Numbered from the stretch's first letter, positions 18,984 through 32,369 are shown. The stretch is 64,000 nt of DNA from Gammaproteobacteria bacterium (GCA_024234955.1 JACKNK010000001.1:389331-453330); one strand, 5' to 3'. The notes: generated by a model not told the origin, from the letters alone. Program-made: numbers and translations.

Positions 18984-19059
18984 TCCCCGGTAGCTCAGTC
19001 GGTAGAGCGGATGACTGTTAATCATTAGGTCGGCGGTTCGAGCCCGTCCCGGGGAGCCA
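18984..19059 (+). tRNA. tRNA-Asn (anticodon GTT).
   Basis: The sequence is TCCCCGGTAGCTCAGTCGGTAGAGCGGATGACTGTTAATCATTAGGTCGGCGGTTCGAGCCCGTCCCGGGGAGCCA. It has a 7-bp acceptor stem, a GTT anticodon inside CTGTTAA, a T-loop GGTTCGAGCC and an encoded CCA. Confidence 0.9.
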
Positions 19060-19330
19060 AATCCAAAGCCCGAAGTGGTCTAACCGCTTCGGGCTTTTTC
19101 GTTGCACGGTGGCAAAGCTCGCCCCGCCGACTGCGTCGCCGGTGGAGGCCGGACTTCCCTGCCCGGCCCCGCTTCGCGGCGGCCTGAAGGCCGTCCAATT
19201 CCGTTCCCGACGGAATTGTCGAGCCCGTCCTGGGGAGCCAAATCTAAAGCCCGAAGTGGTCCAATCGCTTCGGGCTTTTTCGTTGCGCGGCGGTAAAGCT
19301 CGCCCCGCTGACTGCGTCGCCGGTGGAGGC
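19038..19330 (+). repeat. Tandem ~112-bp direct repeat (copies at ~19038-19149 and ~19219-19330, ~90% identical).
   Basis: Each copy carries the last ~22 nt of tRNA-Asn, the terminator hairpin, and about 50 nt further. Copy 2 has CCT where the tRNA has CCC. Most differences fall in hairpin loops. Confidence 0.75.
19065..19100 (+). terminator. Rho-independent terminator downstream of tRNA-Asn.
   Basis: The hairpin is AGCCCGAAG...CTTCGGGCT followed by TTTTT. Confidence 0.7.
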
Positions 19331-20406: not shown

Positions 20407-21246
20407 TCAGAATAGGCCAAGAATGCGTTTCAGAAGGGCCTGGTTGGGGTGTTCGGCCCGCTGCATTGCGAAGATCTGACGCTTGAATTCCGGGGCGTCT
20501 GCGACCGGATACAAACGCCCGGCTTCCACCAGGTTTTGCGCCATCGCCTCGGGCAGGTAAGCCGAACCGTCCAGTGCACCAAGCAAATCGAGGGCCACCG
20601 AGCCCTGACTTACCTGAAGACGACTGGACTGGATCGCTGGCAAGGATTCGTTCTCCCCACTTGCCAGATTGAAGCTCCCCCCCCAATCCACACTGATATG
20701 CGATGCGTCCGCGATCTCGTTGGTTTCCCGCTGGGGTTCGGTGGCATAAAGGCGCAAAGGCACGTCTGCCATCGGCGTCACATGCAACCCGTTGGTGTGC
20801 GAGGTTTCGAGTACAAAGGCCAGGTCGAGCGAGCCGTCTCCAAGCTTCCGGATCAGCGTATGGGCGTCACCAATCTCCAAATGCAAGGCAACATCCGGCA
20901 GTTCCAGCCGTAGACGAGTGACCCAGGACTGCAACCAGGGCTGCCACAGGTCCAGCACCCCTCCAATGGAAACGCTCGCGGATTGCCCATCCCTCAAGGC
21001 GACCTCCGCTTTGGCCCGTCCCCAGGAACGAACGATGATCTCGGCGTGACGGCTGAGTCGTTCACCGGCCGGGGTCAGACGAATATCGTTGCGACGCCGG
21101 TCGAACAGGTCTACACCAAGCGTGGACTCAAGCAATTTGATGCGCGCGCTGACCGCAGATTGGGTAACGAACAGATTGTTCGCCGCGTTACCGAAGTGAC
21201 GGGTGCGTGCGACTTCGAGAAAGGTGCGTAATAAGGCGATGTCCAT
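20407..21246 (-). CDS. LysR-family transcriptional regulator.
   Basis: The N-terminal HTH reads LRTFLEVARTRHFGNAANNLFVTQSAVSARIKLLE. The protein is 279 aa and is transcribed divergently from the acidic-protein/GNAT/RimK operon. Confidence 0.9.
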   Translation of the reverse strand: MDIALLRTFLEVARTRHFGNAANNLFVTQSAVSARIKLLESTLGVDLFDRRRNDIRLTPAGERLSRHAEIIVRSWGRAKAEVALRDGQSASVSIGGVLDLWQPWLQSWVTRLRLELPDVALHLEIGDAHTLIRKLGDGSLDLAFVLETSHTNGLHVTPMADVPLRLYATEPQRETNEIADASHISVDWGGSFNLASGENESLPAIQSSRLQVSQGSVALDLLGALDGSAYLPEAMAQNLVEAGRLYPVADAPEFKRQIFAMQRAEHPNQALLKRILGLF

Positions 21247-21276
21247 CGGGAATTGGCTCTCTTACGACAAGTGATG

Positions 21277-21293
21277 ATGATCTTCACGATCAT
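21277..21293. promoter_or_regulatory. Perfect inverted repeat ATGATC-N5-GATCAT in the LysR / operon divergent intergenic region; candidate LTTR operator.
   Basis: The sequence atgatcttcacgatcat contains two GATC sites. It sits 31 nt upstream of the lysR start codon on the opposite strand. Confidence 0.4.
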
Positions 21294-21452
21294 GACATTT
21301 CGTTAGCGTAAGCGTCGATGGACATCTACAAAGCGCGGAAACGTCGGGCAACCACCCGACCTTCCTTCCTGATCGGCAGTGGTCCTCACGAGCAAGCCGA
21401 TCCCTGCTTTCCCGGCATTCTGCCGGGTTGCAGAAATCTGGAGAACACAGCC

Positions 21453-21653
21453 ATGGGCGATTCTGACGATGATGACTTGATTGATGATGATGACGAATTC
21501 AGCTCCGATGACGACCTGAATTTCGATTCCGAGGATGAGGAGGTTGAACTACGCCATCGTTCACCGCTCGAACTTCGACGCCAGCTAGAGCGTCGTCGTG
21601 AGTTATCCGAACTCCGACGTCTGCTTGACGACCCCTTTCTGGAACTTGATTGA
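21453..21653 (+). CDS. Small (66 aa) extremely acidic protein.
   Basis: MGDSDDDDLIDDDDEFSSDDDLNFDSEDEEVELRHRSPLELRRQLERRRELSELRRLLDDPFLELD. A GGAGAA RBS lies 8 nt upstream. Its stop overlaps the start of the next gene. The longer track ORF from 21318 lacks an RBS and has a biased N-terminus. Confidence 0.55.
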   Translation: MGDSDDDDLIDDDDEFSSDDDLNFDSEDEEVELRHRSPLELRRQLERRRELSELRRLLDDPFLELD

Positions 21654-22828
21654 ACCAACAACATTCGGCGACCGCTCCAGCCTCCTCCGCACCTGATTCG
21701 ACGGTCCCCTCCGCGTCGTCATTGCCGATTTCCAAGGCCGTACCACGGGTCGCGGGCAAAACCGACCTGGACTCCTTAGTCGCCCTGGAAGACCGCTGCT
21801 TCGCCAGCGATCGCCTGAGCCGCCGGCAATTCCGTCACCTGCTGCAACGCGGCAACGCACAGATTCTGGTCATCGACGCCGATGCGCACGGCCTCGCAGC
21901 CGCCATCGTCGTCCTGTTCCGCCGTGCGACCTCCATTGCCCGTCTGTATTCCATCGCGGTGGACCCGGATCAACGTGGGCGTGGTTTCGCCCAGACCCTG
22001 GTTGCGGCTGCAGAGGCGGAGGCGTGGGCGCAGTCGCGCGCGTGGATGCGTCTGGAAGTCCGCAAGGACAACACTGCATCCATCGGGCTGTTTGAGCGCC
22101 TTGGGTATCGCCGTTTTGGCGAATACCGGGACTATTACGAAGACCATATGGACGCCTGGCGCTTCGAGAAGCAGCTCGATCCTGGCCTGAAGCCACCGTT
22201 GGCACGGGTTCCTTATTACGAGCAGACCCTCGATTTCACCTGTGGCGCGGCCTGTCTGATCATGGCGATGCAGGCCCTGAAGCCGGATGAACAGCCGGAT
22301 CGCAAGCTGGAACTGCGCTTATGGCGTGAAGCCACCACCATTTTCATGACCTCAGGTCATGGCGGCTGTGGCCCCTATGGCTTGGCATTGGCCGCCAAAC
22401 ATCGTGGTTTCGACGTTCAGGTCTTTGTGTCGGATCGTGAACCGCATCTCATCGAGTCGGTGCGCAGCGACGCAAAAAAGGAAGTCATGAGCCTGGTCCA
22501 GGAAGATCAGGAAGAGCAACTGCAGCGTGAAGGCGTCCCCATTTCGACTGACGTCCCGGACATCGTTGCACTCGAAGCCTTGTTCCACGATGGTCACATA
22601 CCGCTGGTGCTGATCAGCTCGTGGCAGATTTATCAGGAACGATGGCCGCATTGGGTGGTGATCAATGGTTTCGATGAACATTTCATCTATGTTCATGACC
22701 CCTTCGTCGATTATGACAACGGTGAGAATCGCCTGGATTCGATCAACATGCCCATCAGCCGCGAGCAGTTCACACGCATGGCCCGTTACGGTCGGCGCGG
22801 TCTGCAAGCGGTCATCACCCTGCGCTGA
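21650..22828 (+). CDS. Fusion protein: GNAT (RimI-like) acetyltransferase domain plus a C39-like papain-fold cysteine peptidase domain.
   Basis: GNAT motif A is LYSIAVDPDQRGRGFAQTLV. The C39-like catalytic Cys context is YYEQTLDFTCGAACLIMAMQAL, and the downstream His is HWVVINGFDEHFIYVHDP. The start is TTG per the track and is uncertain. Confidence 0.7.
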   Translation: MNQQHSATAPASSAPDSTVPSASSLPISKAVPRVAGKTDLDSLVALEDRCFASDRLSRRQFRHLLQRGNAQILVIDADAHGLAAAIVVLFRRATSIARLYSIAVDPDQRGRGFAQTLVAAAEAEAWAQSRAWMRLEVRKDNTASIGLFERLGYRRFGEYRDYYEDHMDAWRFEKQLDPGLKPPLARVPYYEQTLDFTCGAACLIMAMQALKPDEQPDRKLELRLWREATTIFMTSGHGGCGPYGLALAAKHRGFDVQVFVSDREPHLIESVRSDAKKEVMSLVQEDQEEQLQREGVPISTDVPDIVALEALFHDGHIPLVLISSWQIYQERWPHWVVINGFDEHFIYVHDPFVDYDNGENRLDSINMPISREQFTRMARYGRRGLQAVITLR

Positions 22829-22840
22829 GGCTATAGAGCA

Positions 22841-24343
22841 TTGAGTGAACACATCCTGCTGGTCGAAAAAACCAGCGAATGGAAATCCGAGTACCCGCCT
22901 TATCCGGTGGTTGCAGCCAGCGACTATCTGACCAATTCCGAGTGGGCCAATCGCAAGGGCCTGCGCGTGGTGAATCTGTGTCGCAACTCCGGCTATCTGG
23001 GCATCGGTTACTACTGTTCCTTGCTTGCTGAGGCGCGTGGACATCGTGTCGTTCCCGACATTCGCACCTTCAACGACCTGAGCCGCAAAGCGTTCTACGG
23101 TCACGATCTCGAGGAACTGGACCGTCGGGTACGTCGGGTTCTGGGGCGCCGCAAGTCCGGACTGGAAACCACCCGCTTCGAGATTGTCATCGTGTTCGGG
23201 GAATGTCGGGTCTCCGAACTGGCCGGCTTCGCTCGTGAATTGTTCATTGCCTTCCGTGCACCGCTCATGAAAGTGGTGTTTGAACGCACCCATCACTGGC
23301 GTATCGAAGCCGTGCGCCCGGTGACGCCGGGACAACTGGATCCGGCCAACCGGGACTTGTTCTTCGACGCCCTGCAGACCTATCTGGGCAAACCCTGGCG
23401 CCGTCCGCGCACCAGGAAGGCACCGCGTTACGACCTCGCGATCCTGCACGACCCCGATGAGGCCATGCCGCCATCGAACCGACAGGCCCTGGCCCGGTTC
23501 ATCAAGGCAGGCAAAGCCGCCGGGATCGCCGTGGAGCTGATCACGCGCAAGGATTTCGGTCGCCTCGCGGAATTTGACGCACTGTTCATCCGCGAGACCA
23601 CCTCGGTGAACGACCATACGTATCGCTTCTCGCGCCGTGCGCAAAGCGAGGACATGGTGGTGATGGACGACCCGGAATCGATTCTGCGCTGCAGCAACAA
23701 GATCTATCTCGCTGAACTGCTCACCAGCAATGGCGTCGCCGCACCCAAGACCGCGATCGTGCGCCCCGAGAACCTTAACGAACTCGAAAACAGCCTGAAT
23801 TATCCGATGGTGCTGAAAGTCCCGGATGGGTCGTTTTCCCGGGGTGTCATCAAGGTCGAAGATCGGGAAGAACTCGATGCGGGTGTGAAACGGCTTTTCA
23901 ACCAGACCGAACTGGTATTGGCCCAGGAATTCGTCCCGACGCAATTCGATTGGCGCGTCGGGGTGCTCAACGGTGAAGCGCTGTTCGTCTGCCAGTACGG
24001 CATGTCGCCTGGCCATTGGCAGATCATCAACCACAACTCCGGCGGCCAGTCTCCGCGTGAAGGCGATCATCGCACCATCTCGGTCGAAGACGCGCCGCCC
24101 AAAGTGGTCAAGACGGCCATCCGCGCGGCGCGACTCATCGGCGACGGTCTGTACGGCGTGGATCTGAAGGAAACCGCCAAGGGCGTCCTCGTGGTCGAAG
24201 TCAACGACAACCCGAATATCGACGTCGGGGTCGAAGACCAGTTCCTCGGCGACGCCTTATACCAACGAATCATCAGCGAATTCGTGCGTCGCCTCGATCA
24301 AAGCCGTCACGCTGTCCGAAGCGGCCCCGCAAACGCATCGTGA
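22841..24343 (+). CDS. RimK-like ATP-grasp ligase with a long N-terminal (RLAN-type) extension.
   Basis: The C-terminal half has RimK-like ATP-grasp motifs: YPMVLKVPDGSFSRGV, ELVLAQEFVPTQFDWRVGVLNGEALFVCQY and GLYGVDLKETAKGVLVVEVNDNP. The total of 500 aa is much longer than the 300-aa RimK. Confidence 0.8.
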   Translation: MSEHILLVEKTSEWKSEYPPYPVVAASDYLTNSEWANRKGLRVVNLCRNSGYLGIGYYCSLLAEARGHRVVPDIRTFNDLSRKAFYGHDLEELDRRVRRVLGRRKSGLETTRFEIVIVFGECRVSELAGFARELFIAFRAPLMKVVFERTHHWRIEAVRPVTPGQLDPANRDLFFDALQTYLGKPWRRPRTRKAPRYDLAILHDPDEAMPPSNRQALARFIKAGKAAGIAVELITRKDFGRLAEFDALFIRETTSVNDHTYRFSRRAQSEDMVVMDDPESILRCSNKIYLAELLTSNGVAAPKTAIVRPENLNELENSLNYPMVLKVPDGSFSRGVIKVEDREELDAGVKRLFNQTELVLAQEFVPTQFDWRVGVLNGEALFVCQYGMSPGHWQIINHNSGGQSPREGDHRTISVEDAPPKVVKTAIRAARLIGDGLYGVDLKETAKGVLVVEVNDNPNIDVGVEDQFLGDALYQRIISEFVRRLDQSRHAVRSGPANAS

Positions 24344-24819
24344 TTGCGCGATTCTGGCTTCTGTCGTTGGCATTTTCAGCGCTGGCTCAGGCCGCCGCAG
24401 GCCCGCTGTCGGTGGATGCCATCCTGCAATTCCGGGAAGCACCGCCTGGTGTCGTGTTCGAGATCATCGAGCCGTCGCCGGAGCAACTTGCGCCTGCGCT
24501 GTTTCAGGCCCAGACGGATGCGGCACGTCTGCGCGACAAGTTTCCCAAACTGCCCATCGCGATCGTCAGCCACGGTCGCGAACAGTTCGCCCTGCTGCGC
24601 GAGAACGCCAATCGCTTCGAAGCCGCGCATCGGGCTAGCCACGCACTCATCGACAGTGGCGTCGAAATCAGCGTTTGCGGCGTAAACGCCGAACGTCGTG
24701 GCAAGACCGCAGAAGACTTCATGCAGGAAATCGACGTCAGTGCGGAAGGTCCGGCCAGAATTCGCGATCTGGAAGCGCTCGGTTATCTTCGGGTGCGCGT
24801 GCGTAGCGCCAAACCCTGA
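24340..24819 (+). CDS. Secreted DsrE/DsrF-like (YchN-fold) protein; putative.
   Basis: Signal peptide MIARFWLLSLAFSALAQAAAG. The start GTG overlaps the RimK-like stop (GTGA). Motifs VVFEII...IAIVSHG...ISVCG are reminiscent of the DsrE family. Confidence 0.45.
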   Translation: MIARFWLLSLAFSALAQAAAGPLSVDAILQFREAPPGVVFEIIEPSPEQLAPALFQAQTDAARLRDKFPKLPIAIVSHGREQFALLRENANRFEAAHRASHALIDSGVEISVCGVNAERRGKTAEDFMQEIDVSAEGPARIRDLEALGYLRVRVRSAKP

Positions 24820-24826
24820 AACGCAA

Positions 24827-24864
24827 AACGCCCGTCAGTATCGGTTGACGGGCGTTCTGTTTTT
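24827..24864. terminator. Bidirectional rho-independent terminator between the convergent DsrE-like gene and mlaA.
   Basis: AACGCCCGTCA-loop-TGACGGGCGTT followed by CTGTTTTT. Confidence 0.65.
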
Positions 24865-24882: not shown

Positions 24883-25632
24883 TTACTTGGCGGGCGGTGG
24901 CGGAGGTGCGTCCAACAACAGATCGTCTTCGCTGAAACCGCCCTTGGCGACCGTTTCGGCGCCGTCCGCAACCAGATAAGCACGACGCTGCAGGTAGGAA
25001 TCCCGCAGGGTCTGATACGGATCGTAAGCCACCTCATCCAGAACGTCGGTAGCGGTCAGCAGATCGGCTCGGGTATCGATGGCACGCAGAATCACCGCAA
25101 CCCAGCGATCCCGCTCCGGATGGACATGGGCAACCGGGTCGATATACCACTCGGCGACAAAACCGACGCCATCACGAACGTTGCTCGGACCGAAGATTGG
25201 CAACACCAGATACGGACCGGTGCCCATACCCCAGTAACCCAGGGTCTGACCGAAGTCTTCATCATGTTTTTCCAGACCCCACATGGTCGCCACGTCGAAC
25301 ACACCGAGGATGCCGAAGCTGGTGTTGACCATGATGCGGGAAAGATCGGACAACGCGTTGACCAGCTTGAGCTGCAGGACGTTGTTGATCATCACACTGA
25401 CATCGTCAATGTTATTGAAGAAGTTGGTGACGCCTTTATCGACCACATCCGGGGTCACGGCCTTGTAAGCTTGTGACACCGGCTTCATCAGAGCCCGATC
25501 AAAGGTCTCGTTGAAGCTGTAGATGCCGCGATTCAACGGCTCCAGCGGATCTTCCGGATGAGCGTTCGGCCCGGTGGCGCAGCCACTGAGAACAGATCCG
25601 GCAACGAATAAAAGCAAGAGCTTGCGAAGCAT
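24883..25632 (-). CDS. mlaA: Phospholipid-binding outer-membrane lipoprotein MlaA (VacJ).
   Basis: Lipobox LSGC. VacJ-family block GPYLVLPIFGPSNVRDG. 249 aa. Confidence 0.85.
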   Translation of the reverse strand: MLRKLLLLFVAGSVLSGCATGPNAHPEDPLEPLNRGIYSFNETFDRALMKPVSQAYKAVTPDVVDKGVTNFFNNIDDVSVMINNVLQLKLVNALSDLSRIMVNTSFGILGVFDVATMWGLEKHDEDFGQTLGYWGMGTGPYLVLPIFGPSNVRDGVGFVAEWYIDPVAHVHPERDRWVAVILRAIDTRADLLTATDVLDEVAYDPYQTLRDSYLQRRAYLVADGAETVAKGGFSEDDLLLDAPPPPPAK

Positions 25633-25718
25633 GATTGAAAATCGACCTTGTAATGGTTCGGCAACAGCGTGGACGGCGCCAAGAATATCAAAACCTTCGG
25701 TTTGGTAACGGGAAAATC

Positions 25719-27725
25719 ATGATCCCGATGGCAATCTCATCTCACGCCCGACTCCTCGGCCACCCTCCGGTACGCACTGCGACCTTACAGTGGTTGTTGC
25801 TGACGTTGACCTTGATTGCTGCCCCTCATGCATCGTGGGTGCCAATCTGGATAACGTTGCTGTTCCTGGCGATTGCCAGCTGGCGTTGGTTTGCCGGACA
25901 ACGCAACTGGAACCTGCCGAATGGCTGGATCCGTGCCGCCAGTGCACTGCTGGGCGTCAGCGCCGTGTATGCGTACTACGGCACCGTGTTTGGACGCGAG
26001 CCGGGCGTCTCATTGTTGCTGGTCATGGTGGCGCTGAAATTGATGGAGCTGAAGACGCAACGTGACGAATGGGTATTGCTGCTGCTCGGCTACTTCCTGT
26101 TGTTAACCGCGTTTCTGTTTCAGCAGGGAATTGGCACCGGCGTTTACATGTTGACTATGGCCATCCTGCTGACCACCCTGCTCACGACGATCAGCGACGC
26201 CCGGCGTCCAGGCCTGGAAACCCGGCATTGGCGCATGGCGGGATTGATGATGTTGCAAGGGCTTCCGCTGATGCTGGCCCTGTTCATCCTGTTCCCACGT
26301 ATCGATCATCCCTTATGGGGCATGTCTGAGTCGGCGGTGGGCGCGCGGACCGGACTGAGCGATTCGATGAGCCCCGGCGCGTTCACCAATCTGACCTTGT
26401 CGGATGAGGTCGCCTTCCGGGTCGATTTCGACGGCGATTTACCGCCCATGTCGAAACTATATTGGCGCGGCCCGGTGTTTTGGCGCTACGACGGGCGGGA
26501 ATGGCGTCGTGGTGGACCCAGTGGGCCGCGTCGGCTCGACTTCAGCAAACTCGACCACGCCGTCGATTACACCGTCACCCTTGAGCCTCATGACCGGCTC
26601 TGGCTGTTCGCGCTCGACGTGCCGGGCGATGTCCCGGACAGTGCCTACTTCACCACCGATTACCGCCTCGAAACCGACCGCCAGGTCAAGGACAGGCGGG
26701 TATACCGAATGCGCTCCTGGCTGGACTACCGCATCGATGCAACGCCGCGCCCGGAGGACCTGAAACTGGCCCTTAGCCTGCCGGATGGCCGCCATCCCAA
26801 GGCGCGTGAACTCGCTGCCAAATGGCGTCAAACCTACGGTGACGATCATCTGGGCATCGTCAATGAGGCGCTCAAAAGATTCCGCGAATTACCTTATCGC
26901 TACACCTTGTCGCCACCTCTGTTGCGCCAGGATCCGGTGGACGAATTCCTGTTCGAAACCCAGGCCGGGTTTTGTGAACATTACGCCAGCAGTTTTGTCG
27001 TGCTGATGCGCGCCGCCGGCGTCCCTGCCCGCATCGTTACCGGTTATCAGGGCGGCATCTGGAACAAACTCGGTGGCTATTTCATGGTCCGACAAGCGGA
27101 CGCCCATGCCTGGGCGGAGGTGTGGTTGCCCAAGGTGGGCTGGTTACGCGTCGATCCCACCGCAGCGGTTGCGCCCCAACGCATCGAACGCGGACTCGGT
27201 GCGGCGATTCGCGATGAACAGCGCGCGCTCGCCGCGATGGCCCAAGCGGATGAAGTTGGCGGTTGGCGCTATCAAGTGGCCCTGGCCTTGGATGCCCTAC
27301 ATACCAATTGGGGGCGCTGGGTGGTCGGCTACAACGCCAAGCGCCAACGCAGCCTGTTGCAGGCATGGGGCATGGATGAGGTCTCCCCGAATCAACTCGC
27401 CCAAGGCATGGTATTCGTCGTCGGCGGTTTGTTGCTGTTCTTCTCGGCGCTGATGTTTCTGCGCCGCTCACCAAACACCTTAACGCCAGTGCAGAAGGCA
27501 TGGCTGCAATTCACCAATACGTTGGAGAAAGCCGGACTGACGCGTGGTCCGCATGAAGGCCCGGTCAACTTCGCCAACCGGGCGGCGCAACGGTTTCCAA
27601 TGTCCGAGACGTCGATCTCTGCGATCGTTTCCGACTACGTTGAATTGCGATACGGACGACAGGTCGACGACGACAAACGCTTGTCACGTTTGCGCCGTGC
27701 GGTGCGGAGTTTCCGACCGAAGTAG
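25719..27725 (+). CDS. Transglutaminase-like domain membrane protein (TgpA-like).
   Basis: N-terminal multi-TM region. The transglutaminase core GFCEHYASSFVVLMRAAGVPARIVTGY has the Cys, and DAHAWAEVW has the His. A C-terminal TM follows. The start is uncertain; the track gives 25635. Confidence 0.75.
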   Translation: MIPMAISSHARLLGHPPVRTATLQWLLLTLTLIAAPHASWVPIWITLLFLAIASWRWFAGQRNWNLPNGWIRAASALLGVSAVYAYYGTVFGREPGVSLLLVMVALKLMELKTQRDEWVLLLLGYFLLLTAFLFQQGIGTGVYMLTMAILLTTLLTTISDARRPGLETRHWRMAGLMMLQGLPLMLALFILFPRIDHPLWGMSESAVGARTGLSDSMSPGAFTNLTLSDEVAFRVDFDGDLPPMSKLYWRGPVFWRYDGREWRRGGPSGPRRLDFSKLDHAVDYTVTLEPHDRLWLFALDVPGDVPDSAYFTTDYRLETDRQVKDRRVYRMRSWLDYRIDATPRPEDLKLALSLPDGRHPKARELAAKWRQTYGDDHLGIVNEALKRFRELPYRYTLSPPLLRQDPVDEFLFETQAGFCEHYASSFVVLMRAAGVPARIVTGYQGGIWNKLGGYFMVRQADAHAWAEVWLPKVGWLRVDPTAAVAPQRIERGLGAAIRDEQRALAAMAQADEVGGWRYQVALALDALHTNWGRWVVGYNAKRQRSLLQAWGMDEVSPNQLAQGMVFVVGGLLLFFSALMFLRRSPNTLTPVQKAWLQFTNTLEKAGLTRGPHEGPVNFANRAAQRFPMSETSISAIVSDYVELRYGRQVDDDKRLSRLRRAVRSFRPK

Positions 27726-27734
27726 GTGCAAGGA

Positions 27735-30377
27735 TCAGCCGGAAAGGCTTTTGCTCGCCACCTCGAAGCAATCCCGAGAGAGATTGTTATGCACAACGAT
27801 GCGCTCCAGTTCTGCACGCATCAGTGACTTGCGATCATCGTCGAAACGTCGCCAATGGGCGAGATTGCCGAGCAATCTGGCGGCAATTTGCGGGTTCTTC
27901 ATATCGATCTGCAACACATGGTCGGCGAGGAATCGGTAACCGCTGCCATCGGCGGCATGAAAACAGATCGGATTGGCCGCGCAGAACGCGCCAATCAGGG
28001 CGCGGATTCGATTCGGATTCCGAGCGTCATAGGCCGGATGGGCTTCGAGGCTGCGAACGCGGGCCAGCGTGTCCGCCATCGGTGCGGTTGCCTGCAGGCT
28101 GAACCATTTGTCGAGTACCAAGGGATCACCGTGCCAACGCTGCGCAAAGCGGTCGAGCACGGCTTCCTGGTGCTTGTTCGGGTGATGCGCCAGGGCCGCC
28201 ATCGCCGCGATGGTGTCGGTCATGCTGCTATCCGCATCGAATTGCTTCTTGGCGAGCTCGATCCCGACCGGCAGGCTGGCGAGATAGCCAAGACAGGTGT
28301 TACGCAGCGAACGCCGACCGATGGCATCCGCATCGACCTGATATGGGCCGCTGGCAGCCATATCGTCGTATACGCGACGCAGTTCATCGGTGAGCGCCTT
28401 GGCCAGCGCGTGTCGAACGAATTCGCGGGCGGTGTGAATCCCGTCCACGTCGATCGGGCTCATGGATTCTGCCAGGGTCGCTTCGGTCGGCAAGCGGATC
28501 AGCTCGGCACGGTAATCGGCGGGCAATGTCGCGTCGTTCAACGCCGCGCTAAACGCCGCGATATAACTGGCATCGAGATGCAGTGTGCGACCGGCTTTGT
28601 GCGCTTCGATCAAGCCCATAATCACCCGTGTAGCCAATACCTGACCGGCCTCCCAACGGTTGAATTCGTCACTGTCATGCGCCAGCAGGTGCCGCAGTTG
28701 TGCGTCGCTGTAGTCAAACTCGAGTCGTACCGGTGCGGAGAATCCGCGCAACAAGGACGGCGTCGGCTCCACATCGAGATTGATGAATTCAAACCGTTCA
28801 ATCGGGTTCCGCAAGGCCAGCACCCGCGTGCCCGTCTGCGCGACCGCCTCCCCTTCCAGACGCAGTGGCAGCTCCTTGCCATCCGGCCCGATCAAACCGA
28901 TCGCGAAGGGGATATGAAATGGTTCCTTCTCGCTCTGCCCGGGAGTGGCCGGGCAAGTCTGGCTGCAATGCAGGGTGTAACGACCGGTGCTGGCGTCGTA
29001 TTCGGGCTCGACAATGACCCGAGGTGTCCCTGCCTGGCTGTACCACCGGCGGAACTGGCTCAGATCGATTCCGTTTGCGTCTTCCATGCAGCGGACGAAA
29101 TCGTCGGTGGTCACCGCCTGGCCATCGTGACGCTCGAAATACAGGTCGGTGCCTTTACGAAAGCCCTCCGCACCCAACAAGGTGTGCTGCATGCGGACCA
29201 CTTCGGCCCCTTTTTCGTAAACCGTGACCGTGTAGAAGTTGTTGATCTCGATATACGAGGCCGGACGTACGGGGTGCGCCATCGGTCCGGCGTCTTCGCG
29301 GAACTGATGCTGTCGCAGCAGACGCACGTCGTCGATGCGTTTCACGCCACGCGCGCCCATATCTGCCGAGAACTCCTGATCCCGGAACACCGTGAGTCCT
29401 TCCTTCAAGCTGAGCTGGAACCAGTCGCGGCAGGTAATGCGGTTACCGGTCCAATTGTGGAAGTACTCGTGGGCCACCACCCCTTCGATGCCCAGGTAAT
29501 CCTGGTCGGTCGCCGTATCGGGTCGGGCGAGGATGAATTTGGCATTGAAGATATTCAGCCCCTTGTTCTCCATCGCCCCCATGTTGAAGTCGTTGACCGC
29601 AACGATCATGAAAATATCGAGATCGTATTCGCGGCCGTAAACCGCTTCATCCCAACGCATGGCGCGCTTGAGCGAGTCCATCGCGTGCTGGCAGCGATCG
29701 ATGTTTTGCGGCTCGACGAAAATCTGCAACGTGACTTCGCGCCCGGAAGCCGTGGTGTAGCGATCCTCGATGTGTTTGAGATCGCCCGCCACCAGTGCAA
29801 ACAGGTAACAGGGCTTCGGAAAGGGATCTTCCCAGGTCGCAAAGTGGCGCCCGCCATCGAGCGGGCCGTGCTCGACCTTGTTGCCGTTTGAGAGCAATAC
29901 CGGAAAGCGCGACCCGTCCGCCTCGATGCGGGTGCGGAAACGTGCCATCACATCGGGGCGATCCGGGTAATACGTGATCTTTCGGAACCCCTCCGCTTCG
30001 CACTGGGTGCAGTAGAGGTCGTTCGACCGATACAGCCCTTCCAGGTTGGTGTTGTCCTGAGGGCGGATGCGGGTGACGACTTCCAGTTCGAAATCGTCCG
30101 GCACCTCGTGAATCAGCAGCGATTCCTCGCCCAGACGGTAATTGTCGATATGCACCCGTTCGCCATCGAGTACGAGCGACACCAGTTCCATGTCCTGACC
30201 ATCGAGGTGCAACGGTGGCGACTCATCCCTTTCCAGCGCCGGATTACGTCGGATGCGACTGCGCGCGGTCACCGTAGTGATGTCATCGTCGAGATGGACG
30301 TCGAGATCGACATGGTCGATCAGGTAGGCGGGCGGCTGATAGTCTGCGAGGTAAATCGTGCTCGGTGCGGTGCTCAT
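27735..30377 (-). CDS. pepN: Aminopeptidase N (M1 family).
   Basis: Zinc motif VVAHEYFHNWTGNR with a downstream LKEGLTVF. 881 aa from MSTAPSTIYLADYQPP. The track ORF starts 28 codons upstream. Confidence 0.9.
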   Translation of the reverse strand: MSTAPSTIYLADYQPPAYLIDHVDLDVHLDDDITTVTARSRIRRNPALERDESPPLHLDGQDMELVSLVLDGERVHIDNYRLGEESLLIHEVPDDFELEVVTRIRPQDNTNLEGLYRSNDLYCTQCEAEGFRKITYYPDRPDVMARFRTRIEADGSRFPVLLSNGNKVEHGPLDGGRHFATWEDPFPKPCYLFALVAGDLKHIEDRYTTASGREVTLQIFVEPQNIDRCQHAMDSLKRAMRWDEAVYGREYDLDIFMIVAVNDFNMGAMENKGLNIFNAKFILARPDTATDQDYLGIEGVVAHEYFHNWTGNRITCRDWFQLSLKEGLTVFRDQEFSADMGARGVKRIDDVRLLRQHQFREDAGPMAHPVRPASYIEINNFYTVTVYEKGAEVVRMQHTLLGAEGFRKGTDLYFERHDGQAVTTDDFVRCMEDANGIDLSQFRRWYSQAGTPRVIVEPEYDASTGRYTLHCSQTCPATPGQSEKEPFHIPFAIGLIGPDGKELPLRLEGEAVAQTGTRVLALRNPIERFEFINLDVEPTPSLLRGFSAPVRLEFDYSDAQLRHLLAHDSDEFNRWEAGQVLATRVIMGLIEAHKAGRTLHLDASYIAAFSAALNDATLPADYRAELIRLPTEATLAESMSPIDVDGIHTAREFVRHALAKALTDELRRVYDDMAASGPYQVDADAIGRRSLRNTCLGYLASLPVGIELAKKQFDADSSMTDTIAAMAALAHHPNKHQEAVLDRFAQRWHGDPLVLDKWFSLQATAPMADTLARVRSLEAHPAYDARNPNRIRALIGAFCAANPICFHAADGSGYRFLADHVLQIDMKNPQIAARLLGNLAHWRRFDDDRKSLMRAELERIVVHNNLSRDCFEVASKSLSG

Positions 30378-30452
30378 CGTCGACCTGAAGTGCTTTGGAC
30401 TGCTCACCAGTGTAAAGGGCACCGCCCTCCTCAAACACCTTGTTGATACGCC

Positions 30453-32369
30453 ATGAATCAAGCCGCCTGTGGAACCTGGAAATCACCGATCAGTGCCTCC
30501 GATGTTGCGGATTCCGGGGTCTCACTGTCTTCGTTGACGGTCGTCGATGGACGTGCAAACTGGCTTGAACGTCGCCCCCTGGAAGGGGGGCGCAGCGTGT
30601 TGGTGAGTGCGCGCGATGGGCGTCTGACCGAGCTTTCCGCTGCCGGATTCAGTATTCGCTCACGCGTGAATGAATATGGGGGTGCACCCTATTGCCTTCA
30701 CGGCGACACACTCTGGTTCTGCAACGATGCCGATCAACGCATCTATCGGCAGGCAGCCGGTGATGCGCCGGTCCCGCTGACCCCTGCCCAACCCCATCGT
30801 TACGCCGACCTGACCTTCGATGCATGGCGAAACCGCTTGCTCGCGATTCGCGAAGACCACACCCGGGACGACCACGAACCGGCGAACGCGATCGTCGCGA
30901 TTGCCCCGGACGGCACGCTAACCACCCTGATCGACGGTGCGGACTTCTACGCCAGCCCGGTGTTCTCACCCAATGGTCGGCAACTGGCCTGGCTGAGCTG
31001 GAATCATCCCGACATGCCGTGGGATGCCACCGCGCTCTGGCTGGCAGACATCGACGCATCCGGACTGCCGCAAAATGCTCGTCAGGTCGCCGGCGGGCCG
31101 GAGGAGTCCATCTTCCAGCCGCAATGGTCGCCCGAAGGTCAGCTTCATTTCGTTTCCGACCGCAGCGACTGGTGGAACCTTTACCGGATCGACGCCCAGC
31201 GCCAGACCCCGCTTTGCCCCATGAACGCCGAATTCGGCCGCCCACAATGGGTATTTGGCATGAGCGCATACGGCTTCACGGCGCACGGCGACATCGTCGC
31301 CTGTTACAGCCGCGACGGTCGCTGGCATCTGACCCGCATCGATGCCGATGGCCACCATGATTACGACCTGCCCTACGACGACATCCAGGAACTGCGAGTC
31401 GGTGGCGATCAGGTCTGGTTGCTTGCCGCAGCCGCCGATTGCCTTCCCGGCATCATCGAGATCGACGTTCGTGACGGTCGCCATCAGCGACTTGCGCACG
31501 GCGGCAGCGCGGGACTCGAGACCGCCATGATCGCCATACCCGAAGCATTCAGTTTCGCCAGTGGCAAGGCGATGGCGCACGCGTTCTATTACCCGCCAAC
31601 CCATGCCGACTTCGCGCCTCTGCCGAACGAGGCCCCACCGTTGATCGTAAAAATCCACGGAGGCCCGACTGCCGCGACCAGTACCGCCCTGAATCCTCAG
31701 ATCCAGTTCTGGACCAGCCGGGGATTTGCCTTGGTTGATGTCAATTATCGCGGCAGCACGGGCTACGGTCGGCGCTATCGCGAGGCGCTCCACGGCGAAG
31801 CCGGCATCGCCGACGTTGAGGACTGCATCAATGCGGCACGACATTTGATCGCGGCAGGACGCGCCGATGCCAACCGGTGTCTGATTCGCGGCAGCAGTGC
31901 TGGGGGATTCACGGCACTTGCCGCCCTGACCTTCCACCGGTTTTTCCGCGCCGGGGCCAGCTATTACGGCATCGGTGATCTCTCAGCGCTCGCGCGTGAC
32001 ACGCACAAATTCGAGGCACGATACATCGATCGGCTGGTAGCACCCTGGCCAGAGGGTGAGGCCTTATACCGGGCGCGTTCTCCGCTTGAACATGTGGCAC
32101 AACTCGCGGCCCCGGTGATCTTCTTTCAAGGTCTGGACGACAAGGTCGTGCCGCCGAATCAGGCCGAAGACATGGTCAACGCACTCGTGCGCAAAGGGCT
32201 GCCGGTTGCCTATCTCACGTTTGAAGGCGAGGCCCATGGTTTCCGCCGCGCAGAGACCCTCATTCGCACCTTGGAAGCGGAATTGTCGTTCTACGGTCAG
32301 GTGCTCGGATTCGAGCCCGATGATGACATCGAAGCCGTGGCGATCCGCAATCTTGACGCCAATGCATGA
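30453..32369 (+). CDS. S9-family serine peptidase (prolyl oligopeptidase / acylaminoacyl-peptidase-like) with an N-terminal beta-propeller.
   Basis: Nucleophile GSSAGG. C-terminal alpha/beta hydrolase region with D and H. 638 aa. Confidence 0.8.
   Translation: MNQAACGTWKSPISASDVADSGVSLSSLTVVDGRANWLERRPLEGGRSVLVSARDGRLTELSAAGFSIRSRVNEYGGAPYCLHGDTLWFCNDADQRIYRQAAGDAPVPLTPAQPHRYADLTFDAWRNRLLAIREDHTRDDHEPANAIVAIAPDGTLTTLIDGADFYASPVFSPNGRQLAWLSWNHPDMPWDATALWLADIDASGLPQNARQVAGGPEESIFQPQWSPEGQLHFVSDRSDWWNLYRIDAQRQTPLCPMNAEFGRPQWVFGMSAYGFTAHGDIVACYSRDGRWHLTRIDADGHHDYDLPYDDIQELRVGGDQVWLLAAAADCLPGIIEIDVRDGRHQRLAHGGSAGLETAMIAIPEAFSFASGKAMAHAFYYPPTHADFAPLPNEAPPLIVKIHGGPTAATSTALNPQIQFWTSRGFALVDVNYRGSTGYGRRYREALHGEAGIADVEDCINAARHLIAAGRADANRCLIRGSSAGGFTALAALTFHRFFRAGASYYGIGDLSALARDTHKFEARYIDRLVAPWPEGEALYRARSPLEHVAQLAAPVIFFQGLDDKVVPPNQAEDMVNALVRKGLPVAYLTFEGEAHGFRRAETLIRTLEAELSFYGQVLGFEPDDDIEAVAIRNLDANA

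Follow-up and report, generated by a model that had tools for sequence, protein, structure and literature searches.

Do four genes that are chained by overlapping stop and start codons, and read away from a shared regulator, form one biochemical system? This question is raised by positions 21,247 to 24,864 of a 64,000-nucleotide stretch of DNA (hereafter the window, meaning the whole stretch that was analyzed) from a Gammaproteobacteria bacterium (GCA_024234955.1, JACKNK010000001.1:389331-453330). Here a gene for a LysR-type regulator stands divergent from genes for an acidic mini-protein, a fusion of a GNAT acetyltransferase with a C39-like cysteine peptidase, a RimK-like ATP-grasp ligase and a secreted, weakly DsrE-like protein. 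An earlier note on this DNA had read the four genes as a single undescribed system with the acidic mini-protein as its plausible substrate, scaffold or carrier. Our analysis leads to a different answer. The locus is very probably a composite, in which a backbone (the LysR, acidic and DsrE-like genes) holds a self-contained two-gene cassette at about 21659-24340. For the explanation as a whole, namely a composite locus whose cassette makes an N-acetylated Glu-type oligopeptide and whose acidic protein is not the substrate, we lean in favor on balance.

The composite structure emerges from comparison with sister genomes. A homolog of the acidic protein, P0123 (69% identical, from a Chromatiales metagenome-assembled genome), is encoded in loci L085-L087, where the gene order reads abhydrolase, LysR (minus strand), a 66-aa acidic protein (plus), a 163-aa protein (plus), MlaA (minus), TgpA (plus) and PepN (minus), and the cassette is absent. 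The 163-aa protein of L085 is the ortholog of the 159-aa DsrE-like protein of the window (56% identity, E 7e-57), and these sisters accordingly keep the acidic and DsrE-like genes adjacent without the cassette. DNA homology between the window and L085 ends at 21658, just past the stop codon of the acidic gene, and resumes at 24429; the cassette is therefore an indel that falls precisely between two backbone genes, and it was either gained long ago in this lineage or lost from that of the sisters. A 53-codon ORF (open reading frame) across the L085 intergenic region, spotted by eye, was considered as a deletion scar and rejected, as apart from ‘LNQ’ it resembles neither the N-terminus of the GNAT protein nor the C-terminus of RimK.

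The cassette, for its part, is a conserved pair. We compiled neighborhood statistics from the best 80 loci carrying the GNAT-C39 fusion, with flanks of up to 7 kb fetched per side (shorter at contig ends). The fusion and the ligase, which bears an N-terminal RLAN domain, are adjacent in 77 of these loci, 73 of them co-directional with the ligase immediately downstream and 4 divergent. The other three, L002, L023 and L058 (Thiorhodospira sibirica), carry the GNAT-C39 gene without an RLAN-RimK gene in the fetched flanks, so in some genomes the pair may be unlinked or the ligase lost. Searches with the RLAN domain also revealed fused forms: P0285 (663 aa) is a GNAT-RLAN-RimK triple fusion lacking a peptidase, P0388 and P0389 are listed as further fusion variants, and P0275 is a fragment that joins DUF3335, the peptidase domain, to RLAN. 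Such fusions strongly indicate that the two cassette proteins work in concert, and the functional link proposed between them in the earlier note thus gains both a conserved pairing and fusions. The unity proposed for all four genes did not survive the same comparison: a homolog of the acidic protein occurs at one of the 80 cassette loci and one of the DsrE-like protein (searched with phmmer) at none, an outcome that the earlier note had itself named as refuting.

What else accompanies the pair is lineage-specific, as judged by clustering of the neighbors at these loci. Recurrent companions of this kind encode ArgA-like, RsmF-like methyltransferase, YpfJ-like and Ada-like proteins, names that were given by sequence reading alone; neighbor clusters 2 and 4 were discarded as antisense artefacts, a product of high GC content. 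No conserved peptide that might be a cis-encoded substrate lies beside the cassette. A search for a conserved small ORF (20-110 aa) that might be a precursor or carrier returned nothing beyond the ends of genes and, in other frames, shadows of neighboring genes. Likewise, no ABC exporter or transporter was found in the conserved cassette neighborhood of the 80 loci, and a PADLOC scan of the four window proteins for anti-phage defense gave no match.

The pair is also widespread. GNAT-C39 homologs fill more than 4,349 protein clusters, many of them already named ‘GNAT family N-acetyltransferase/peptidase C39 family protein’ by the NCBI Prokaryotic Genome Annotation Pipeline (PGAP), and a scan of GTDB with one genome per species gave at least 573 confirmed matches. 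The host species are mostly Chromatiales, Ectothiorhodospiraceae, Sedimenticolaceae, Halieaceae, Competibacteraceae, Rhodocyclaceae and Gemmatimonadota/Longimicrobiales. With the PGAP-named PF11814/PF14401 pair the window cassette shares its architecture, gene order and conserved residues, and it differs only in context, lying between a PA3496-like and a DsrE-like gene. It is, then, a typical member of a widespread, catalogued and uncharacterized enzyme pair. To call it undescribed was an overstatement, given that PF11814, PF14401 and PGAP product names already exist and that NCBI already holds the window proteins under those names. The GNAT-C39/RLAN-RimK pairing itself was reportedly predicted by comparative genomics by Iyer and colleagues in 2009. 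As the earlier note had supposed, biochemical characterization is another matter: our literature search turned up no experimental study of either DUF3335 or RLAN. A 2023 survey of papain folds in the Journal of Biological Chemistry (PMC10318531) mentions the DUF3335-GNAT fusion in passing, citing Iyer et al. 2009 as its reference 74. As an uncharacterized pair present in at least 573 GTDB species representatives, the cassette leaves a real gap in what is known of how ATP-grasp, GNAT and papain-like enzymes work.

Where does this leave the acidic mini-protein? Its gene (21453..21653, plus strand) is part of the backbone and encodes the 66 residues originally described; the Asp/Glu content is 41% (27/66), not the roughly 45% first given, and reaches 59% in the N-terminal half, after which comes a helix-like segment rich in Arg. 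Against NF046101 (‘PA3496 family putative envelope integrity protein’) the protein scores 15.7 bits, under the cut-off of 22 (E 0.015, profile positions 1-52 of 54), while its homolog in the distant locus L006 passes with 26.2 bits. To widen the view we used a second set of 80 loci, taken from a metagenome scan by LysR alignment, whose LysR genes are 38-47% identical to that of the window. About 14 of these LysR-centered loci have a small acidic protein beside LysR with the motif (A/L)RR.IE...EL(R/K)RL. An alignment of ten such LysR-adjacent small proteins, with the L006 homolog as first row, was assembled; all of those aligned match NF046101 (best E 7.4e-13), and hhalign places the profile of window-type acidic proteins with the LysR-adjacent small proteins at a probability of 96.4% (E 1.2e-9). 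The acidic ORF shares with the PA3496 family its length, its acidic N-terminal half, the Arg-rich helix (A/L)RR.(I/L)E...EL(R/K)RL and an HdfR-like LysR neighbor; it departs from the family in scoring below the cut-off, as a divergent subgroup of 4 close clusters. By these profile comparisons, the protein belongs to the PA3496 family as a divergent member, and it accompanies HdfR-like LysR regulators.

PGAP lists the acidic gene as P0121, a 111-aa product starting at ATG 21318. The 45 extra codons (21318-21452) have a ratio of nonsynonymous to synonymous substitution rates (dN/dS) of 0.35, compared with 0.066 for the 66-residue core, the reference here and below being L081, a relative 79% identical to the window. 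Because of this contrast, because the homologs are 64-66 aa long and because GGAG lies just upstream, the start at 21453 is the likelier correct one, and the 45 upstream codons are probably non-coding.

We can now weigh the idea that the four genes form one dedicated system in which the ligase acts on the acidic protein as substrate, scaffold or LysW-like carrier. It is easy to see its appeal: the stop codon of the acidic gene overlaps the start of the GNAT gene, this acidic/GNAT junction is conserved in L081, carriers of the LysW type are small and acidic, and in L006 the acidic/LysR pair lies beside the cassette. We nevertheless consider this idea highly improbable. The cassette loci were searched for ORFs that begin with ATG and consist of at least 25% Asp/Glu, and afterwards with phmmer and a custom hidden Markov model. 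Homologs turned up only in L006 and close relatives; in L006 a LysR gene comes before the cassette, and the acidic copy lies past that gene, divergent from it and on the opposite strand. The other 79 of the 80 loci thus have the cassette without it. Conversely, the acidic gene persists in L085-L087, which lack the cassette, so the protein is not the dedicated substrate or carrier of the cassette enzymes. Its close homologs form only 4 clusters among 5.8 billion proteins, as compared to thousands of clusters for the cassette. The junction is no better guide, for the TTGA that follows the acidic gene in the window also follows it in L085, where no GNAT gene comes after it, and the C-terminus DDP[FY]LELD is conserved equally with and without the cassette. 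C-termini across the PA3496 family are not conserved and the acidic protein has no Zn-ribbon residues. The comparison with LysW/LysX, which likewise combines a RimK-clade ligase with a small acidic protein, therefore does not extend to a Zn ribbon, to a conserved C-terminal Glu or to co-conservation, and the LysX model gives the ligase 79.4 bits where 275.6 are required. In short, the role first assigned to the acidic protein is largely refuted by comparative genomics. This removes a misleading lead, and the minimal unit to express is two genes. It also carries a caution for genome annotation, in that tight stop/start overlaps can join genes from separate evolutionary units.

The first cassette gene (21650..22828, plus strand) encodes 392 residues, with a RimI-like GNAT domain at about residues 33-175 and a DUF3335 C39-like cysteine peptidase at 187-391. 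In Pfam the protein matches DUF3335 (‘Peptidase_C39 like’) with 287.7 bits and Acetyltransf_1 with 51.1 bits, above gathering scores of 25 and 20.7. The fusion first noticed from the sequence alone, with a peptidase keeping both Cys and His, is borne out, since Cys198, His334 and Asp350 are invariant across 24 homologs; the acetyl-CoA motif RGRGFA of the GNAT half is conserved among homologs as well. All the marks of the fusion family are present, that is, both domains in one polypeptide, the papain-like Cys-His(-Asp) residues and the R-x-x-G-x-A motif. The closest characterized relatives of the GNAT half are RimI and the archaeal and eukaryotic N-alpha-acetyltransferases (Naa30, Ard1), all far under their family cut-offs. 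The peptidase does not qualify as a C39 enzyme that processes bacteriocins: PF03412 was unmatched, and PF13529 (Peptidase_C39_2) reached 21.7 bits against a threshold of 24. As compared to the C39 double-glycine peptidases (ComA, PCAT1), the pseudomurein endoisopeptidase PeiR and Alr0975 (PDB 2btw, a phytochelatin-synthase-like protein), the cassette peptidase is cytoplasmic, fused to a GNAT domain and not fused to an ABC transporter.

The ligase (gene 22841-24343, plus strand) is 500 residues long and has, as first described, a long N-terminal extension, which is the RLAN domain (residues 1-193, 22841..23419). The RimK/LysX-clade ATP-grasp module occupies the C-terminal part (23426..24343, PF08443). 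RLAN (PF14401) scores 156.8 bits and RimK 44.2 bits, with gathering scores of 25 and 21, and all four Pfam families expected for the two proteins are found above their gathering scores. The ATP-grasp positions (K in LKVPDG, D in GVDLK and E-x-N in VEVNDNP) are near-invariant in 45 sequences, and the corresponding Lys, Asp and Glu-x-Asn positions align with canonical RimK. RLAN itself is probably a truncated, degenerate and non-catalytic copy of an ATP-grasp-like module. Judged from conserved sequence, the three predicted catalytic domains of the cassette all keep their catalytic residues, and their fold matches count towards predicted catalytic competence.

Might the ligase simply be the canonical RimK, the S6 glutamate ligase, under an odd annotation, and the locus an ordinary one? 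PGAP does call it a ‘RimK family protein’, the Pfam RimK domain matches, and its nearest PDB sequences are RimK and LysX. We regard this as next to impossible, and as refuted by the comparisons that follow. The C-terminal 300 residues are 23% identical to canonical RimK, with the identity confined to the ATP-grasp region. The model for the S6 ligase (NF007764) yields 34.6 bits as against 331, and rimK_fam (TIGR00768) 91.4 as against 143.4. The best NCBIfam models, namely rimK_fam, LysX, MptN and CofF, are those of alpha-L-glutamate and LysX-type ligases, and all score under cut-off. The architecture differs too: canonical RimK, for instance that of L104, combines Rimk_N with RimK in about 300 residues, whereas the 500-residue ligase has RLAN and no match to Rimk_N. 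The same contrast holds for E. coli RimK and the Pseudomonas rimABK-type operon, which share with the cassette the RimK/LysX-clade ATP-grasp residues, hydrolase-type partners and, in several lineages, an HdfR-like neighbor; the cassette ligase has the extra RLAN, and its partner is the GNAT-C39 protein, not an AstE/AspA-like protein with a retropepsin-like one.

What, then, might the pair make? We propose that the ATP-grasp module would activate a carboxylate as an acyl-phosphate and join it to an amino acid, L-glutamate being the likeliest candidate, with RLAN serving in substrate or partner binding or in oligomerization. The RimI-like GNAT domain would N-acetylate a free alpha-amine, and so either cap the product or create an N-acetyl-amino-acid acceptor, and the C39-like Cys-His-Asp domain might hydrolyze, trim or reverse the product, or act as a transpeptidase. 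By analogy, the substrate class that we prefer is free amino acids or short peptides, which would yield an N-acetylated Glu-type oligopeptide; taken by itself, this choice of substrate is one that we would put a little short of probable.

Several known systems inspire this preference. Ngg is a GNAT and ATP-grasp fusion, the hallmark of the synthetase for N-acetylglutaminylglutamine amide (NAGGN), and works with an M42 peptidase, and the mammalian NAT8L and RIMKLA make N-acetylaspartylglutamate (NAAG), with N-acetyl-aspartate as the acceptor of the RimK-like NAAG synthetases. The NAGGN system (Ngg, AsnO and the M42 peptidase) and NAT8L with RIMKLA/B join an N-acetyltransferase to an ATP-grasp ligase as the cassette does, and in the former a peptidase is also combined. 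The GNAT-RLAN-RimK fusions resemble the Ngg architecture; the cassette nonetheless differs from Ngg in lacking an amidotransferase and in its peptidase fold, and the Ngg model (TIGR03103) gives 27.9 of the 569 bits called for, over the GNAT core only. In glutathionylspermidine synthetase/amidase (Gss), the product of an ATP-grasp synthetase is reversed by a papain-like Cys-His amidase; the cassette pairing is like it in this respect, and would similarly have its amidase built in. There the likeness stops, for the cassette domains are on separate polypeptides, the peptidase is C39-like and not CHAP, and a GNAT domain is added. Many of the host taxa, finally, are presumably halophilic, alkaliphilic or marine sulfur bacteria. 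It is because of the Ngg, NAAG and Gss analogies and this host ecology that we prefer a small-molecule substrate.

Alternatively, the cassette might modify protein termini, the ligase adding Glu to a trans-encoded C-terminus, the GNAT domain acetylating an N-terminus and the peptidase trimming the tail or exposing a terminus. RimK and LysX act on protein C-termini, and the S6:S18 pair, whose members are substrates of RimK and RimI, would be an attractive target. The best models and PDB relatives of the GNAT domain are indeed RimI and the N-alpha-acetyltransferases, the ATP-grasp module is closest to RimK and LysX, C39-type peptidases usually cut peptides or proteins, and RLAN could serve as a protein-docking module. 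The regulator adds to this, as described below. We consider protein-terminus modification possible yet rather unlikely: the rimI, rimK and LysX model scores are all far under their cut-offs, the 80 loci show no target gene in linkage with the cassette, and the known GNAT-ATP-grasp fusions come mainly from small-molecule pathways.

Five points weigh against the explanation that we lean towards, the composite locus with a cassette for an N-acetylated oligopeptide. The evidence for the chemistry is computational, and the substrate class is argued from analogy. The affinities to RimI/Naa30/Ard1, RimK/LysX and C39 would fit the modification of proteins at least as well. In the distant lineage L006 the LysR/acidic pair adjoins the cassette, and a functional link to the acidic protein may exist. 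In the compositional transfer test the GC content of the cassette, also at third codon positions (GC3), was indistinguishable from that of its flanks, and composition does not give the direction of the indel. Co-transcription of the four genes, lastly, is deduced solely from the overlaps and the missing internal terminators.

The LysR-type protein (279 aa; 20407..21246, minus strand; HTH_1 and LysR_substrate domains) is divergent from the acidic gene and HdfR-like: among 52 LysR models HdfR (NF002946) is best at 186.8 bits, under the cut-off of 240. Between the two genes lies a putative promoter/operator region (21247..21452) with a palindrome, ATGATC-N5-GATCAT, at 21277-21293. The intergenic half nearest LysR, which contains this palindrome (inverted repeat I4), is strongly conserved in L081 and in the cassette-less L085, and because it is conserved even in the latter the LysR-controlled promoter belongs primarily to the acidic gene. 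The cassette is probably read from this promoter, so that the backbone regulator may also regulate the cassette. LysR control, as originally proposed, is plausible for this lineage, and the same type of LysR adjoins the cassette in others too: members of the ortholog group lie upstream on the same strand in L006 and L024, downstream and convergent in L030 and divergent in L075, and the metagenome set adds L096, L111 and L112.

In 13 of the 80 LysR-centered loci the neighbor is instead the canonical rimK operon (DUF1003, RimK with Rimk_N and RimK domains, AstE/AspA-like, MscS-like and Zn_protease). Loci with the HdfR-like LysR by such an operon include L104 (1238-6532), L115, L128, L135, L155, L099, L132, L142, L159 and L162. 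That HdfR-like regulators adjoin either this operon or the cassette (in the window lineage, L006, L024, L030, L075, L096 and L111/L112) suggests a positional equivalence of the two, and favors protein-terminus modification; the equivalence could, however, be inherited synteny. This leads us to a further speculation, which we hold to be quite unlikely, that the cassette is a non-orthologous, HdfR-controlled counterpart of rimK/rimI ribosome modification, its pseudo-dimeric ligase, with RLAN as the dead ATP-grasp half, and its RimI-like acetylase/peptidase adding, capping and trimming terminal tails on a protein encoded in trans, for example S6:S18. If true, this would explain why HdfR orthologs stand beside one or the other. 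More cautiously, HdfR-type regulators are recurrently associated with RimK-type ligase modules, of which inherited synteny may be the cause, and our literature search found no paper tying HdfR functionally to rimK.

Two further observations concern this regulator. LysR orthologs of 39-42% identity in L104, L128 and L135 stand divergent from a DUF413/MaoP gene, the arrangement of hdfR in E. coli; the window has no such gene there. In eight loci (L094, L102, L105, L108, L110, L113, L145 and L146) the HdfR-like LysR is adjoined by a stand-alone GNAT of ~190-215 aa, 38-51% identical to the GNAT half of the cassette protein, which lies upstream of LysR on the minus strand; the DNA fetched for these loci holds neither a C39 nor a RimK partner.

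What is new here is incremental: the composite locus, the placing of the acidic ORF in the PA3496 family, the probable ATP-grasp-like nature of RLAN, the triple fusions and the association of HdfR with RimK-type modules. For future work the analysis indicates two testable substrate classes and a candidate regulator, the HdfR-like LysR that is also a neighbor of canonical rimK operons.

The layout of the four genes was confirmed from the ORF list and the sequence, with the chaining, both 4-nt overlaps and the divergent LysR gene all as first described. At 21650-21653 (TTGA) the TTG start of the GNAT fusion overlaps the TGA stop of the acidic gene; the ligase begins with a TTG 12 nt beyond the GNAT stop, and the gap holds a GAGG; and at 24340-24343 (GTGA) the GTG start of the 159-aa ORF overlaps the TGA stop of the ligase. 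With respect to L081, the ligase gene has a dN/dS of 0.040, followed by GNAT-C39 with 0.059, the acidic ORF with 0.066 and the 159-aa gene with 0.10. All five genes, LysR included, are under purifying selection (0.04-0.10), and are therefore real genes and not chance ORFs. The sole strong terminator-like site of the region is a hairpin at 24827..24856 (plus strand; a 13-bp stem, then a T run), 3' of the fourth gene and between the convergent 159-aa and MlaA genes. Since this only strong terminator sits after the fourth gene, a single transcription unit fits, and the four genes are probably co-transcribed. A scan of the region for a sigma-70 consensus promoter gave no match.

The fourth gene (24340..24819, plus strand), a backbone gene, encodes the 159-aa protein, which would be periplasmic and has a conserved Cys113. 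Its description as secreted and DsrE-like holds in part: the DsrE/DsrF likeness is sub-threshold (PF02635, 18.9 bits, gathering score 22.7), although the weak match recurs in all three orthologs, and the putative signal peptide was judged by eye alone. A profile search of PDB with this protein returned noise only and no sequence relative.

Beyond it follow the gene for an MlaA lipoprotein (24883-25632, minus strand), one for a TgpA-type transglutaminase with DUF4129 (25635-27725, plus strand) and one for a PepN-like M1 aminopeptidase (27735-30461, minus strand). These backbone genes are syntenic in L081 and L085 and have no link to the cassette. On the other side of the locus a tRNA-Asn(GTT) gene lies at 18984-19059, with a 112-nt direct repeat (19038-19149 and 19219-19330, 93% identical) whose first copy begins within the 3' end of the tRNA gene, an arrangement that resembles an att-type duplication from an integrated element. 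Immediately upstream of the abhydrolase gene, L085 has a block with a Phage_GPA gene.

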